Source: Desulfobacterales bacterium (lineage in GTDB: Bacteria > Desulfobacterota > Desulfobacteria > Desulfobacterales > C00003106). From it: a DNA stretch of 29,376 bases. The DNA lies in contig DAOVGD010000040.1 in NCBI GenBank assembly GCA_030672555.1, forward strand, positions 1-29,376. Reading direction: 5' to 3'. The notes beneath the pieces were generated by a model. The model worked only from the letters and a program-made list of their open reading frames with translations. It was not told where the DNA came from and made no database searches. Below, in pieces: positions 8,874 to 21,700 of this stretch; position 1 is the stretch's first letter, and each line of letters begins with the position of its first letter. Both the position numbers and the translations under genes were made by a program.

Positions 8874-10052
8874 TCAACTTTCGTCCCGTGAGCGCACAAG
8901 TTGGCGAAGGCGTTCAGACAGACGATTAAAAAGACTCAAAAGCTTTATAGGCTCTTCTCTTGATGCCTTTCGCACCATAAAGATTGTCAGCGCTCCGAGA
9001 AAGATATTTGGGAACCAAATCCCCAGCGCTGGGGGATAAATACCGGAGTCATCGAAGCTCTTCCCCGCAGCAAAAAGGATATAATAAAGGAGAAAAATTC
9101 CAAGGCCGAATGATACACCCCCGGGCGAGCCGGAGATTTTCGTCTGCATCCCCAGAGGTACGGCAATCAGGCCGAGAATAATACAGGACAGAGGAAACGC
9201 AAATTTCTTGTGAAGCTCCATTAAGTAAAGATTATATTCTATGTCCTTGCTCTTGCATGATTTGAGCTTTGCAATAAGTTCTGAGATAGACATTTCGCTC
9301 TTTCTAATCCCTCTCTCTTCCCGGGTTTTCGCCAATTGCTGCAGATCGAGGGATAATTCATACGTGCTGAACCAAATAGTATCAGAACTCGTCATGTCTT
9401 GGCTGTCGTAGTGAATATTGCCTTCGATCAGTTTAAGCGCCAATCTCTTTTGCTCGGGGTCTGACACTATAACCCCCTTTTTAGCAATGATAGTATTTGA
9501 GAGACGCGGATCTCTTTTGTCCGAAATAAAAATGTCTTGTAGAAATTTTCCTGAAACATCTACTTCATTGGCATAAAGGACTATATCTTTAAAGTCGTCA
9601 TTGAAATGGCGGGGTTTTATCCCAGCGTATGCCCTTTCACTTGCCACTGAATAAACCAGCTCATTGAAGGCTCGTTTCCCTTTTGGCATGGCATAGATAG
9701 CCATATAGCTTGCGCATAGATAAGCAAATACAGAAAGAACAAAAACCGGAGGAAGGATCTGGTAAAGGCTGATGCCGGAAGCCTTGATTGCAGTCATTTC
9801 GTTATCATGAGAAAGCCTTAAAAAAGTCAAAAGCACGGCCAATAGCGTGGAAATCGGCAATGTAAATACAAAGGAATAGGGGAGGGTATATAGAATTAAA
9901 AGACCTATTGCGGATGGTGGCACCCCTTTGTTTATTATGAGATCTGTAAAGGTAAATACCTTTGTGACGAGGAGAACGAAAGTAAAGGTGATGATGCTGA
10001 CAGTAAAAAACTGAAAAAGTTCTTTTAAAATATATCGATGAAGGATGGTCAT
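8874..10052 (-). CDS. lptF: LPS export ABC transporter permease LptF
   Basis: RLSHDNEMTAIKASGISL and ELHKKFAFPLSC motifs; first of the pair, directly after msbA. Confidence 0.85.
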   Translation of the reverse strand: MTILHRYILKELFQFFTVSIITFTFVLLVTKVFTFTDLIINKGVPPSAIGLLILYTLPYSFVFTLPISTLLAVLLTFLRLSHDNEMTAIKASGISLYQILPPVFVLSVFAYLCASYMAIYAMPKGKRAFNELVYSVASERAYAGIKPRHFNDDFKDIVLYANEVDVSGKFLQDIFISDKRDPRLSNTIIAKKGVIVSDPEQKRLALKLIEGNIHYDSQDMTSSDTIWFSTYELSLDLQQLAKTREERGIRKSEMSISELIAKLKSCKSKDIEYNLYLMELHKKFAFPLSCIILGLIAVPLGMQTKISGSPGGVSFGLGIFLLYYILFAAGKSFDDSGIYPPALGIWFPNIFLGALTIFMVRKASREEPIKLLSLFNRLSERLRQLVRSRDES

Positions 10053-10183
10053 TTGTCATTTATCATTAGTCATTTGACATCTGTCATTTATCATTTAAGA
10101 ATCCCGGTTTGGAGGGCTTATATTCCAAGCGAGAATCAATGCGATTTTCAATGATAAATGATAAATGAGAGATGATCAATGAT
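10049..10183. repeat. Inverted heptamer-arm element (TCATTTG / AAATGAT)
   Basis: Seven TCATTTR-like units 10049-10097 and five AAATGAT-like units 10149-10183; contains the lptF ATG and the msbA TGA. Confidence 0.9.
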
Positions 10184-16814: not shown

Positions 16815-17075
16815 TTATTCCGAAGAAGCTTTCTTAGAATCGGTTGACTTGGAAGTGTTATCCTGCTTTTTTGAAGAAGAAGAATTGCCCGGAGATTTCC
16901 CTGCGTAATCCGTTACATACCACCCACTTCCTTTAAGATGGAATGTGGATTGAGAAATAAATTTGTGGAGTTTCCCTTTACAAGCCTTGCATATGGATAG
17001 GGGTTTGTCGGAAAATTTCTGGAATGCCTCTTCAATAGCGCCACATTTTTCGCATTCATACTCGTATATGGGCAT
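16815..17075 (-). CDS. FmdB-family zinc ribbon protein
   Basis: MPIYEYECEKCG...CKAC...FHLKGSGWYVTDY; GGAGG Shine-Dalgarno upstream. Confidence 0.9.
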   Translation of the reverse strand: MPIYEYECEKCGAIEEAFQKFSDKPLSICKACKGKLHKFISQSTFHLKGSGWYVTDYAGKSPGNSSSSKKQDNTSKSTDSKKASSE

Positions 17076-17117
17076 TTTTAAAGATCCTCCTCGAAATAAT
17101 TAATTTTATATGTTACC

Positions 17118-17145
17118 AATATAATCTCCTCTTCTTGTTTGTCAA
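17118..17145 (-). promoter_or_regulatory. Sigma70-type promoter for the FmdB-family gene
   Basis: Minus strand reads TTGACA-N16-TATATT. Confidence 0.6.
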
Positions 17146-17274
17146 GCAATTAAATCGGCATAAAGATGAAGGATCTTGACTTTTTAATGAAAGGTTACTA
17201 ATGAATATACCATAATCATGTAAAATTTTTCACTATAATTATTTTTTTATGCGTCGAATAGTAAAAGGAATGTT

Positions 17275-17574
17275 ATGCTTATATTTGCCAATTTTTTGAG
17301 CGCGGTTGCAACGGTTTTGGATATTGTTTTGACTATATTTATGTGGATCGTTATTGCCCGGGCTGTTCTGTCCTGGGTCAATCCGGATCCGTACAATCCG
17401 ATAGTCCGCTTTATTCACAACATCACCGAGCCGGTACTATATCGGGTCCGAAGGCTACTCCCTGTGAGTTTTGGTGGAATCGATATTTCACCGATTTTAG
17501 TATTTTTGGCAATAATATTTTTGCAGACATTTGTGGTGAAGAGTCTAAAGATGTTGGCAATGCGGTTACTTTGA
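17275..17574 (+). CDS. yggT: YggT family membrane protein
   Basis: LSWVNPDPYNPIVRF...TEPVL...GIDISPI. Confidence 0.92.
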   Translation: MLIFANFLSAVATVLDIVLTIFMWIVIARAVLSWVNPDPYNPIVRFIHNITEPVLYRVRRLLPVSFGGIDISPILVFLAIIFLQTFVVKSLKMLAMRLL

Positions 17575-17585
17575 GAGGTGATAAA

Positions 17586-18086
17586 ATGAAGATTACTCCT
17601 GTAGATGTTCAGCAAAAACAATTTCGTATGCGTTTTAGAGGCTTTGATGTTCATGAGGTGGACAACTTTCTGGAAGAGATAGCAGAAGCCCTGGAAGAAT
17701 TTTGTCGAGAGAACAAACTTCAAAAGGAGGAGATCCAGAGACTAAGAAGAGAAGTTCAGCAATACGAAGAACGTGAAAAGGGCTTTAAGCGCGCCATGAT
17801 GAATGCGCAAAAGGTCCTGGATGAGATGAAGGGAAACGCCGAAAAAGAAGCGGAGCTTGTAGTTTCGGAAGCTGAGATAAAGGCCGAAAAGATTCTTAAT
17901 GCTGCCCATAACCGTCTTGCCCAGATTCACGAGGATATTTCAGAACTGAAACGTCAGCGTGTACAGTTCGAAGTGCAGTTTCGTTCCCTGCTGGACTCGT
18001 ATGCAAAAGTCTTGGATGTGGATAAGGAAGATATTGAAGCCCTTGAGGCCGCTGAAGACAAGCTGAAGTTTCTGAAAAAAGGATAG
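17586..18086 (+). CDS. DivIVA domain coiled-coil protein
   Basis: MKITPVDVQQKQF...FRGFDVHEVDNFL followed by coiled coil; GAGGTG Shine-Dalgarno before ATG 17586 (the ORF track start at 17343 is an upstream extension). Confidence 0.9.
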   Translation: MKITPVDVQQKQFRMRFRGFDVHEVDNFLEEIAEALEEFCRENKLQKEEIQRLRREVQQYEEREKGFKRAMMNAQKVLDEMKGNAEKEAELVVSEAEIKAEKILNAAHNRLAQIHEDISELKRQRVQFEVQFRSLLDSYAKVLDVDKEDIEALEAAEDKLKFLKKG

Positions 18087-18089
18087 CAC

Positions 18090-18138
18090 GGATTGAGGAT
18101 TGACGATTGACGATTGAAGATTGAGGATTGAAGATTGA
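18090..18138 (+). repeat. 7 x 7-nt tandem array VGATTGA
   Basis: GGATTGA GGATTGA CGATTGA CGATTGA AGATTGA GGATTGA AGATTGA; one more AGATTGA unit follows at 18345-18351. Confidence 0.95.
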
Positions 18139-18163
18139 TGGTTTCGTAAAAAGTCTCGGTAGC

Positions 18164-18311
18164 TTGTCATTTCGAGCGACCTGCCCGCCATAGCCATGTA
18201 TGCCGGCATTGTGGTTGCCAAGCTAACTAGGCGTTGGCAGGCGGGAGCGAGAAATCTTTATCCTGTAATATGCTGAAAATATAAGATTTCTTCCCGCGGT
18301 CGAAATGACAA
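18164..18311. repeat. REP-like palindrome TGTCATTTCGA...AGAAATCT / AGATTTCT...TCGAAATGACA
   Basis: Perfect 12-bp IR at 18164-18175 / 18300-18311 and 8-bp IR at 18250-18257 / 18284-18291. Confidence 0.8.
18180..18245. mobile_element. 66-bp GC-rich hairpin insert splitting a GCGAAGC motif
   Basis: Ends CCTGCCCGCC / GGCAGGCGGG; removing the insert restores TCGAGCGAAGCGAGAAATCT, matching the length of the opposite arm. Confidence 0.6.
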
Positions 18312-18360
18312 ATTCGTTGAATCCGACTTTTTACGAGATCATCAAGATTGACCAATAACT

Positions 18361-18654
18361 GTGAAATTATCAATACAAGAAACCGGAAAAGGTGTTTTAT
18401 TTAAAGCGGTTATTCAACCCAGATCTTCCAAAAACATTATTGTAGGCATCCATGGTGATGCGTTAAAGATCAAATTGACGGCTCCCCCGGTTGAGGGCGC
18501 GGCGAACAAGCTTTGCGTCAAGTTCCTTGCATCCATATTAAAAGTATCCCCATCTGATATAGAGATTGTCAGCGGACAGAGCGGACGAAAGAAAAAGATC
18601 CTTGTTCATTCGGTAACTCGCAAGTATTTAGAGTCAAAACTATCCCTTATTTAA
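18361..18654 (+). CDS. DUF167 / YggU family protein
   Basis: IQPRSSKN...LKIKLTAPPVEGAANK...IVSGQSGRKK; GTG start. Confidence 0.9.
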   Translation: MKLSIQETGKGVLFKAVIQPRSSKNIIVGIHGDALKIKLTAPPVEGAANKLCVKFLASILKVSPSDIEIVSGQSGRKKKILVHSVTRKYLESKLSLI

Positions 18655-18695
18655 CCACTCGACCACTCGACTACTCGACCACTCGACCCGAAGCG
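18653..18695. repeat. Solo octamer arm (GACYACTC) with shortened terminal motif
   Basis: AACCACTC GACCACTC GACTACTC GACCACTC GACC, then CGAAGCG; overlaps the DUF167 stop. Confidence 0.85.
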
Positions 18696-18737
18696 TTTCC
18701 CTTGACTCCTTACTATCCTTTTGATAATCATTTTCAC

Positions 18738-21700
18738 ATGTCAACTTCTGATTTCATTCATCTCCATGTCCATACCGAATACAGCCTTTTGGATGGAGCA
18801 ATCCGTCTGGACGACCTGATTCATAAGGCAGAATCGTATGGGATGTCTGCCGTGACCATGACCGATCATGGAACCATGTTCGGTGCGCTGTCATTTTATA
18901 AAAAGGTATCTAAAGCAGGGATGCGGCCGATTATAGGGTGTGAGGTTTATGTTGCACCCAAGAGCCGATTTGATAAAAATCCTCATGATAAGTCCGGTGG
19001 GTCCTACCATCTTGTCTTGTTGGCACGAAACAAAAAAGGATATCAAAATCTTTGCCGGCTTGCCACCATCGCACAATTGGAAGGGTTTTATTACAAACCA
19101 CGTATAGACAAAGAAGTGCTTAGGGAACATAGCGAGGGGCTTATTGCATTGAGCGCATGTCTGCACGGCGAGATCCCTCGTCTTATACAGAAAGATCGTA
19201 TAGATCTGGCAAAGGAAGTAGCGCTCTTTTACCAGTCACTTTTTGGAGAGGGACGATTTTATCTGGAGGTACAGGCGAATGGGATTGCTGAACAGGAGAA
19301 GGTCAATGCAGCTCTGCTTGAGATGAGTCGGGAACTTTCAATCCCTCTTGTAGCCACCAACGACTGTCACTATCTTAATTCCCAGGATGTCCGGGCTCAC
19401 GAGATCCTTCTGTGTATTCAGACCGGAAAGACTATTCACGATGAAAAGCGGTTCAGATTCAGGACCGACCAGCTTTACTTTAAGTCTCCGGATGAGATGA
19501 AAAAAGATTTTGCAAGTTATCCGGGTGCCATAGAAAATTCGGTGCATATTGCCGGCCAATGCAATGTAGAACTTGAATTCGGAAAGTATCATTTTCCAAA
19601 ATTTCCAATTGACCCTGGTGAAACAGCGGCTGAAAGAATGGCCCGTAACGCAGAAACCGGGTTAAAACAACGGTTACAAGAGATAGGTGAGCGACACCAG
19701 GGGCCTGTAGATGAAGAACAGTACCGGAAGCGTTTAAGATATGAGATCGATGTAATCCAGAAGATGGGTTTCCCCGGCTATTTTTTGGTAGTTGCCGATT
19801 TTATACGTTATGCCAAAGAGGCAGGTGTTCCGGTAGGACCGGGTCGCGGCTCGGCTGCAGGGAGCTTGGTGGCCTATTCTCTCGGAATCACAGAACTCGA
19901 CCCCATCGAATACGGGCTGATCTTCGAACGGTTTTTGAACCCTGGAAGACAGAGTATGCCCGATATTGATGTGGATTTCTGTATGGATAAACGTGAGGCG
20001 GTTTTCAAGTATGTATTAGACAAATACGGCGGTCCTGATCACGTTGCTCAGATTATCACATTCGGAAAACTGCAGGCCCGCGCGGTGATCCGTGATGTGG
20101 GACGAGCCCTTGATATCCCCCTTCGAGAAGTCGACGTTATTGCCAAATTGATTCCTGATGTCCTGAAGATTACCATTGAGCAGGCGATTCAACAGGAGCC
20201 TAGACTGCGGAAGATGGAGCGGGAAGATCCCCGGGTAAAAGAACTTCTTTCCATTGCGCGTGTTTTGGAAGGGCTTCCCAGGCATGCATCCACGCATGCG
20301 GCAGGTGTCGTGATTTCAGGCAGACCGCTGGTCGAATATCTTCCCCTTTACAAAGGCTCAAAGGGTGAGGTGGTCACCCAGTATGACATGAAGTGTGTGG
20401 AGGCTATCGGGCTGATTAAGTTCGACTTTTTAGGGCTCCGCACATTGACCGTAATAGACCATGCCCTAAAGCTCATACGAGAAAGACATGGTAATGCCCC
20501 GGACATTTCCAGGCTTGATATGGAAGACACCAAGACCTTTGAGCTTTTGTGTGCGGGGAAGACCACCGGCGTATTTCAGCTGGAAAGTTCGGGCATGAAG
20601 GACATTTTGGTCAAGTTGAAGCCCGAATCGTTCAATGAGATCATTGCGCTGGTGGCCCTTTACAGGCCTGGACCGTTGGAAAGCGGAATGGTCGATGATT
20701 TTATTAAACGGAAACACGGCAAGGTGGAAGTCGCTTATCTTGTACCCGAGCTTGAACCTATCCTGAAAGATACCTATGGCGTTATCCTCTACCAGGAGCA
20801 GGCAATGAAAATAGCTTCTGTTCTTGCGAACTATTCCATGGCCGAGGCGGATAATCTCAGGAAGGCCATGGGCAAGAAGGTCTCAGAGATTATGGTACAG
20901 GAGAGGAAGCGCTTCTTAGAAGGGGCAAATGATAACGGAATTGATCTGAAAAAGGCCGAAGCCATATTCGATCTAATCGAAAAGTTCGGGGGGTACGGCT
21001 TTAATAAGTCACATAGCGCAGCATATGCACTTATCGTCTATCAGACCGCTTATCTAAAGGCCAACTATCCGATCGAGTTTATGGCATCCGTGCTTACCAG
21101 TGAAATGGGAACCACAGACAATGTGGTCAAGTATATTACCGAGTGTCGCAATCAGGGAATTCCCGTCCTTCCGCCTGACATTAATGAGAGTGGGAAGGAT
21201 TTTACAGTGGTGGAACAAAGTATTCGATTCGGACTTGCCGCGATAAAAAACGTGGGTGAGGGTGCGATCGAATCGATTATTGCTGCCAGAGAGACGGATG
21301 GCTCTTTTAAATCAATTTATGATTTTTGTGAGCGGGTTGATTTACGTAGGGTTAACAAACGGGTAGTTGAGAGCCTTATAAAATGCGGCGCTTTTGATTC
21401 CACAGGCGCAAAACGCTCACAGATGTTGTATGTGATGGAAGATGCCTTAGAGATCGGGCAGAAAAGGCAAAAAGACAGGATAAGCGGGCAATTTAACCTG
21501 TTCGGCGCTACAGCCCAGGAGGGCGGGGTACAGCCGACACTACCGGACATGGAGGAATGGCCGGAGAATCAACGATTAGCCTTTGAAAAAGAGACATTAG
21601 GTTTTTTCGTTACCGGCCACCCCTTGGCCAAGTATGAAAAGATCCTCTCCAAATATACCTCTGCTGATACGCTGAAAATTTTGGATTTTCCAGATGGCAG

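Follow-up and report, generated by a model that had tools for sequence, protein, structure and literature searches.

The ends of IS200/IS605 elements are not inverted and carry subterminal hairpins, and a strict target word of 4-5 nt lies 5' of the left end. The small dispersed repeats (SDR) of Nostoc, which Elhai and colleagues reportedly described in 2008, are said to be cyanobacterial sequences of 21-27 nt that sit in or beside heptamer repeats, are nested and cause no target duplication. The HIP1 palindrome serves SDR5 as an insertion site (PMC5861425). Among hairpin repeats of the REP type, one class is defined by a terminal CGTC, TGTC or CCTC tag (Di Nocera, De Gregorio & Rocco, 2013; PMC3733652). 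CGTC/TGTC REPs have a stem of 8-9 bp that opens with two A-T pairs, a loop of 4-5 nt and a 3-nt tail; they occur mostly as inverted dimers, have already been reported within longer palindromes, and form a class without a dedicated transposase (PMC3733652). The REPINs of the RAYT system are small hairpin doublets without target duplication, in genomes that carry Y1 HUH genes (Bertels & Rainey, 2011, PMC3116915; Ton-Hoang et al., 2012, PMC3333891). MITEs and insertion sequences land in REP or palindromic repeats, as reported by Tobes & Pareja (2006; PMC1525189) and cited in PMC3116915. Intergenic tandem arrays are described from Geobacter metallireducens, as paired 'global regulator binding sites' (PMC2700814), and from Beggiatoaceae, as TAACTGA repeats (PMC4679880).

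The spacer considered here separates divIVA from a DUF167 gene in an uncultured Desulfobacterales bacterium. It is 274 bases long and is filled by four gene-less repeat kinds nested one inside another (Table 1). The window, i.e., the whole stretch of 29,376 nt that was analysed, corresponds to contig C147 of a MAG of 1.79 Mb that is 81% complete (G000; other genomes are likewise given as G, contigs as C and further loci as L), and a PHP-domain, DnaE-like gene comes after DUF167. A preliminary description had placed four nested layers in this spacer, and all four were confirmed by the TRF array, the heptamer AGATTGA at 18345-18351 and the sequence of layers 2-4. Its view that the layers are unrelated, nested elements that also occur separately elsewhere agrees with the independent copies found for each layer, and these copies, together with empty sites, rule out a composite that exists only as a fixed unit. 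The best explanation is that four independent repeat families, none with a gene, piled up in the spacer by successive insertion, a reading to which we assign a probability of about 85%. Since a heptamer array, a TIR/TSD MITE and a TGTC-tagged REP dimer are known kinds of repeat, most of the apparent mystery is gone. The three outer layers belong to those kinds or vary closely on them, and the new part is the family of layer 4 together with the landing bond that it shares.

Table 1. Features of the divIVA-DUF167 spacer and its flanking genes (window coordinates).
Feature	Position	Strand	Remarks
DivIVA-domain protein gene, upstream	17343..18086	+	Pfam DivIVA E = 5e-39; true start possibly later in frame
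Layer 1, tandem heptamer array (GATTGAN) x7	18090..18138	+	TRF period 7, 7.0 copies, consensus GGATTGA
Layer-2 target-site duplication AGAT, left copy	18132..18135	.	sequence
Layer 2, MITE shell, 209 bp cargo included	18136..18344	+	TIRs 18136-18158 and 18322-18344
Layer 3, inverted dimer of TGTC-tagged REP-like hairpins	18165..18310	+	80 nt minus guest
Layer-3 left unit	18165-18179 plus 18246-18258	.	interrupted by layer 4
Layer 4, 66-nt GC-rich element CCTGCCCGCC...GGCAGGCGGG	18180..18245	+	in GCGA^AGC loop of left REP unit, without target duplication
Layer-3 right unit	18283-18310	.	sequence
Layer-2 target-site duplication AGAT, right copy	18345..18348	.	sequence
DUF167 (YggU family) gene, downstream	18361..18654	+	Pfam DUF167 E = 3.5e-22

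Array, MITE shell and REP dimer

The array of layer 1 is intergenic like the heptamer-octamer arrays of G. metallireducens and Beggiatoaceae, but its unit sequence differs. Layer 2 interrupts its last unit, and AGATTGA is present again to the right of the insertion. This heptamer had been described as a reappearance of the last unit; it is explained by the AGAT duplication of layer 2 and the following TGA of the layer-2 end. Orthologous spacers in three congeners lack the composite or have other repeats in its place. In G002 (C205, divIVA 94% identical) a GATTGAN array is followed by ACCAATAA... without the inner layers, G001 has another inverted array of the CCGAAAT type, and the G005 spacer measures 22 nt and has no array. 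The array is thus older than the insertion, and the differences among these spacers indicate a rapid turnover of intergenic arrays in the genus. Across the whole window, TRF lists 38 rows of arrays with 7-8-nt units, located at gene junctions. An octamer array at 18654-18688 (ACCACTCG x4.4) runs from the DUF167 stop codon to 13 nt before the dnaE-like start.

Layer 2 had been described as an element of 211 bp with 21-bp inverted repeats; the element stands, with its size corrected to 209 bp and its arms to 23 nt. In the window 18 of the 23 arm positions are complementary, and sister copies match better. The core word TTCGTAAAAAGTC occurs 184 times in G000 (at most two mismatches). Each of five relatives has 68-242 occurrences of it and 3-18 of the reversed control word. 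Approximately 100 copies of the TIR are present in G000, and 37-40 pairs of them enclose diverse interiors of 37-278 bp. A perfect 4-bp duplication flanks 16 of 37 non-redundant end pairs, where 0.14 are expected and a shifted control gives none. With its TIRs, fixed-length target duplication, small size, non-coding interior and many copies, layer 2 is a conventional TIR/TSD MITE. The proposal of structure-directed insertion consequently fails for this layer, and an HUH or single-strand mechanism is excluded for it. The enzyme is probably of the DDE type, and the TG...CA termini and 4-bp duplication would fit an IS3-like DDE enzyme, although this last step is a guess.

An autonomous partner of layer 2, with ends 0.7-3 kb apart, was not found in G000, nor was a plus/minus pair at that distance among the G001 matches listed; the rve-type transposase genes of G001, G012 and G028 have no flanking layer-2 ends (all of these being fragmented MAGs). 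The sole far-apart TIR pair in G000, in C74, proved to be two separate elements around an ordinary gene.

The cargo of layer 2 varies. In addition to layer 3, it can be an inverted array of GTCATYT heptamers, as in C106, or a CGTC REP dimer of the classical kind, as in C9; still other shells hold different sequences or merely 4-13 nt. The copies in C9 and C106 are likewise inserted at GATTGAAGAT^TGA in arrays, and the heptamer runs at these sister loci are inverted arms on opposite strands. The window shell is 93-97% identical to shells free of layer 4 (C197, G003:C122), whereas its identity to the G002:C216 shell is only about 80%. MITEs are again nested with repeats here, as in the findings of Tobes & Pareja (PMC1525189) cited in PMC3116915, but with the roles reversed, the MITE being the outer shell and the REP dimer its cargo.

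Three further observations concern such shells. At G000:C9:7287-7421 the shell surrounds a textbook CGTC REP dimer (CGTCATTCCCGCGAAAGCGGGAATCCA ... TGGACTCCCGCCTGCGCGGGAGTGACA) in the same register of a GATTGAA array, with the duplication AGAT. At G000:C106:5487-5656 the right end of layer 2 runs into a complementary heptamer array (...ATCTTCA ATCGTCA ATCTTCA), a merger which suggests that array units can overwrite, or grow out of, element ends. A second MITE family, with ends AGTGCCTGAACGAAAAC...GTTTTCGTTCAGGCACT and 4-bp flanking repeats of the AATT/ATTT type (C92:3763-3890, C56:10966-11094, C113:3470-3682, C144:6505-6703), has layer 3 or an inverted octamer array as its interior and is another shell with exchangeable cargo.

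The palindrome of layer 3, TGTCATTTCGA...TCGAAATGACA, had been placed at 18164-18311 and its bounds are corrected to 18165-18310. Each arm has a TGTC tag (18165-18168, with its complement at 18307-18310), an eight-position stem that opens with an A-T and a T-A pair, the 5-nt loop CGAAG and a 3-nt tail. The stem, ATTTCGAG / CGAGAAAT, has six Watson-Crick and two G.A pairs, and the tail reads CTT, not CCA. Uninterrupted copies have the sequence TGTCATTTCGAGCGAAGCGAGAAATCTT...AAGATTTCTCCCTNCGGTCGAAATGACA; one of them folds at -21.1 kcal/mol (z = -7.3 against shuffles), and the predicted uninterrupted reading GAGCGAAGCGAG was found in G000 copies. There are ten layer-3 copies in G000, in three kinds of context: within layer-2 shells (C197, C195, C193), within the second MITE family with its AGTGCCTGAACGAAAAC ends and AATT-type duplications (C92, C56, C90), and without a recognised shell (C12, C154, C23). 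Nine of the ten are inverted dimers, C90 being a truncated left arm alone, and none has a gene attached. No target duplication was found around layer 3 and no linked enzyme gene; judged from its distribution, it is probably mobile.

By its sequence, layer 3 appears to be a member or close variant of the CGTC/TGTC-tagged REP class (PMC3733652), which it matches in tag, spacered inverted dimer and lack of a transposase gene. Its hairpin agrees with the class in part: the lengths of stem, loop and tail and the two opening A-T pairs correspond, but G.A pairs take up two positions of the stem and CTT stands where a CCA tail is described. The loop also receives further elements; most described families are alphaproteobacterial, whereas the host of layer 3 belongs to the Desulfobacterales. 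Three-armed variants, in which the left unit is followed by a further partial REP arm of 21 nt (CTTGTTTCGACGACAGGAGAAATC), occur in G028 (C13:60320-60640, C94, C63), and the TGTCATT termini of layer 3 equal one unit of the GTCATTT arrays at window 10048-10183.

The 66-nt family and its landing sites

The innermost layer had been called a 66-bp hairpin. The 66-nt segment is real, but its fold by itself is unremarkable (z = -1.2 to -1.5 against shuffles), so that the term hairpin overstates its structure; what is conserved is its ends, 16-nt imperfect inverted repeats that reach the termini. Near-invariance extends to positions 13-16 and 51-54, which the search words did not cover; further inside, TGCCGGCA shows moderate conservation, and the remaining interior is free. 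Covariation within layer 4 gave a subfamily signal only, with no clean helix past the ends.

A scan of one genome per species returned at least 136 copies in at least 119 loci of other genomes. Nearly all of the matches listed are exactly 66 nt long and nearly all come from Desulfobacterales-type MAGs; records of related repeats are Desulfobacterales or Desulfobacteria MAGs, many of them from cold-seep studies. In one related genome, G031 (MAG CSMAG_2677, 3.8 Mb), 862 end-words against 9 control words correspond to about 430 copies. Many of the G031 copies are nested two or three deep. Approximately 27 members of the wider family are present in G000, including 39-nt, 75-78-nt and ~100-nt forms and a triple self-nest in C113, and a 33-nt form in G002 consists of the two ends alone. 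The family is very abundant and apparently undescribed, and its distribution suggests that it is mobile.

End pairs 0.25-3.2 kb apart enclose ordinary genes in the loci examined, and no autonomous partner with layer-4 ends was found in the G000, G001, G028 and G031 loci, all from fragmented MAGs. 'Orphan' ends in G031 were considered as ends of such a partner and turned out to be point-mutated ordinary copies. More generally, no layer could be tied to a transposase gene in the G000, G001, G012, G028 and G031 loci (fragmented MAGs).

As had been noted, removing layer 4 restores the GCGA^AGC word: it gives back GAGCGA^AGCGAG, which is how the uninterrupted copies in C197, C195 and C193 of G000 read. 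Comparison of filled with empty sites shows that layer 4 duplicates no bases. The targets were summarised from 74 context clusters among the matches listed in other genomes, some of which may represent one event even where they look independent, as copying also multiplies whole composites. In these contexts the base before the insertion point (position -1) is A in 61% and G in 26%, and T follows the point (position +1) in 57%; positions -2 to -4 look almost random, and the others are weakly biased. Layer 4 inserts mostly at A^T steps, with favoured places inside other repeats. One of these is bond 21^22 of another layer-4 copy (GCCAGAGA^TGCCGGCA), with at least 13 nests and at least six distinct guest clusters, all co-oriented and none opposite among the matches listed. 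Further favoured places include bonds beside TGGCRGGCRGG and the octamer array TTTCGA^TATTCGG. TGGCRGGCRGG forms the 3' flank in 16 cases and its complement stands on the 5' side in 0-3 (again among the matches listed), and the commonest context was found uninterrupted in G001.

The word GCGAAGC constitutes the loop region of the left layer-3 unit, and with 158 occurrences observed and 158 expected it is not enriched in G000. The bond GCGA^AGC holds layer 4 in two diverged layer-2 shells, those of the window and of G002:C216, whose layer-4 copies belong to the same subfamily and are 91% identical; layer 4 has thus either arrived twice independently or been lost precisely from sister copies. 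In a host without layer 3 (L132), this subfamily occupies GGAGCGA^AGCGGAG, and a 39-nt relative of layer 4 lies in GACGCGA^AGCGGAC (C17, C91), for which C68 and C187 have the empty form. G000 has 158 oriented GCGAAGC sites among 3.6 million oriented positions; for the ~16 family contexts of this genome that are independent, the chance of two insertions at such a site is ~2e-7.

An unrelated 39-nt hairpin of the GTAG type (GCCGACTTCGCC...GTAGCC..GGCTAC...GGCTGAA), with about ten copies in G000, occupies the layer-3 GCGA^AGC bond in two shells of G003, which have an empty sister in C29, and also in G339. Copies of this element (GCCGACTTCGCCATAGTAGCCTTGGCTACGACGGCTGAA), without duplication, lie in G000 at C107:723, C113, C151, C170:11686, C175:12824, C44:4350 and C205:121 and in G003 at C24 and C204, and a CCCTCTCCC/GGGAGGGG hairpin also has it in its loop. 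When metagenomes were scanned for inserts of 36-66 nt at precisely the GCGA^AGC bond, at least eight unrelated and mostly self-complementary guests were returned besides trivial tandem-unit matches; these figures cover this one bond.

The claim that layer 4 targets GCGA^AGC therefore holds as recurrence and fails as a sole preference. The bond accounts for one of the 74 outside contexts among the matches listed, and layer 4 also lies in the other layer-3 arm at TCGA^AATGACA (C193, G028:C94, L078), so that the layer-3 loop is preferred and not obligatory. GCGA^AGC is supported as a recurrent landing site, one recurrent word among RA^T targets.

Assembly of the stack and the candidate enzymes

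Probably a single event took place at this locus, in which a cut-and-paste transposase of the DDE type, acting in trans, would have put the layer-2 MITE into the last unit of the heptamer array already there and so duplicated AGAT. The inserting MITE may already have carried layers 3 and 4, or may have gained layer 4 soon after. Layer 3 is carried in at least two kinds of MITE shell and also stands alone. Layer 4 would be recognised by an enzyme through its 16-nt ends and be inserted without target duplication, in a fixed orientation to short words (RA^T, with GCGA^AGCG recurrent), mostly in other repeats, its own copies included. The composite is probably neutral for the flanking genes.

Proteins that might move layer 4 are encoded in the genome. 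G000 has two proteins of 344-352 aa with an N-terminal IS200-like Y1_Tnp domain (C45:2397-2720 and C29:1029-1352; loci L022, L023), one of which also matches DnaA_C, a C-terminal helix-turn-helix. Against the NCBIfam RAYT model they score 66.6 and 58.5, below the curated cut-off of 80. Genomes rich in layer 4 have 6-17 Y1-family matches each, mostly in frames of ~320-360 aa. Neither the two G000 genes nor ten from the layer-4-rich genomes are flanked by layer-3 or layer-4 words. A 136-aa frame near layer-4 copies in L025 (JAUWXF010000255.1, minus strand near 2600) looks, by eye, like the C-terminal zinc-ribbon part of an IS91-type (Y2 HUH) transposase.

The most serious rival reading, that of the preliminary description, holds that layer 4 and the 39-nt GTAG-hairpin element move single-stranded via an HUH Y1-type enzyme (RAYT or IS200/IS605-like) aimed at extruded hairpins, the loop of the GCGAAGC mini-hairpin being its target. 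The lack of target duplication, the precise empty sites and the fixed orientation to the target word all speak for it, as do the landing bond common to two unrelated guests and to the metagenome inserts, the documented stability of d(GCGAAGC) as DNA (PMC13037366) and the Y1 genes themselves. However, these genes are not flanked by the repeats and fall short of the RAYT cut-off, and they are found in 39 of 41 relatives irrespective of layer-4 load (rho = 0.28, p = 0.07, uncorrected for kinship), so that their presence cannot discriminate; the HUH reading draws its strength solely from the absent duplication, the exact junctions and the orientation bias. The metagenome scan lacked a positional control, and GCGA^AGC is rare among the outside contexts. 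The structure-directed insertion proposed in the preliminary description fares poorly: hairpin tips (stem of at least 5 bp around the bond, loops of at most 6 nt) hold two of the 74 layer-4 sites among the matches listed, no more than random A^T steps (p = 0.44). Like IS200/IS605 elements and their miniature derivatives, layer 4 inserts without target duplication and in one orientation beside a short word, but its 16-nt inverted ends reach the termini and its target is merely RA^T. REPINs (PMC3116915, PMC3333891) carry a GTAG tag that layers 3 and 4 lack, although the unrelated 39-nt guest contains GTAGCC..GGCTAC, and the Y1 genes here differ from RAYT genes in score, in the lack of flanking repeats and in the DnaA_C domain of one of the two G000 proteins. 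An HUH or single-strand mechanism for layer 4 is possible, and a strand-specific single-strand enzyme (HUH Y1-like) is our best single guess, a tentative one; the fuller reading with hairpin targeting is rather doubtful. The Nostoc SDR, as reportedly described, are also very small, nested, without duplication and possibly aimed at a short palindrome, but layer 4 is 66 nt long (relatives 33-39 nt), has 16-nt inverted ends and shares no sequence similarity with them.

A second reading dispenses with a dedicated enzyme for the inner layers. Host structure-specific nucleases (SbcCD-like) would nick extruded palindromes at or near their tips, and repair would copy in abundant hairpins by template switching. 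Landing bonds common to guests of unrelated sequence, the central position of layer 3 and of heptamer inverted arrays in MITE shells, and the failure to find an enzyme gene would all agree with this, but layer-4 ends that are near-invariant over 16 nt around a free interior are as expected for protein recognition; moreover, the junctions are base-exact in dozens of copies, microhomology and filler bases were not seen, and the strict orientation bias and the copy number of G031 are hard to obtain in this way. We regard nuclease action as improbable. A selected regulatory or RNA element between divIVA and DUF167 (terminator, attenuator or mRNA-stabilising hairpin) seems more improbable still. 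REP-type hairpins can stabilise or terminate transcripts (PMC3733652), and the whole composite, as single-stranded DNA, has a very stable predicted fold (-50.2 kcal/mol, z = -8.2); yet the orthologous spacers of the three congeners do without it, its copies adjoin unrelated genes, and a permissive Rfam scan of 17000-19500 returned zero families at E <= 1. That the layers lack independence, the composite being a single fixed unit or a product of misassembly, is scarcely credible. The entire composite does recur as a unit, in G002:C216, and the short-read contigs of the source sample end at these repeats, but every layer has independent copies and empty sites, and the G002:C216 copy lies at a non-orthologous site with different flanks and the duplication ATAT. 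Since the same composite was assembled independently in G002, a chimeric assembly is unlikely. Contigs from other sequencing runs contain layer-3 copies without layer 4, and none crosses the divIVA-DUF167 locus.

The remaining interest lies in the layer-4 family, with some 430 copies within 3.8 Mb, conserved 16-nt ends around a free interior, insertion without target duplication, oriented self-nesting and a bond shared with an unrelated element. As a speculative extension, layer 4 and the 39-nt GTAG-hairpin element could be substrates of an unrecognised strand-specific system that reads words like GCGA^AGCG, makes no duplication and allows precise loss, with the multi-copy Y1_Tnp-DnaA_C proteins as its enzyme. 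If this were true, layer 4 would be among the smallest inverted-end mobile elements known, and the loops of CGTC/TGTC REPs would be shared landing pads. For cold-seep Desulfobacterales, these repeats fragment short-read assemblies and produce spurious small ORFs, and the exact shared bond in the CGTC-type REP loop offers a concrete starting point in the search for whatever enzyme or enzymes mobilise mini-elements of this kind.
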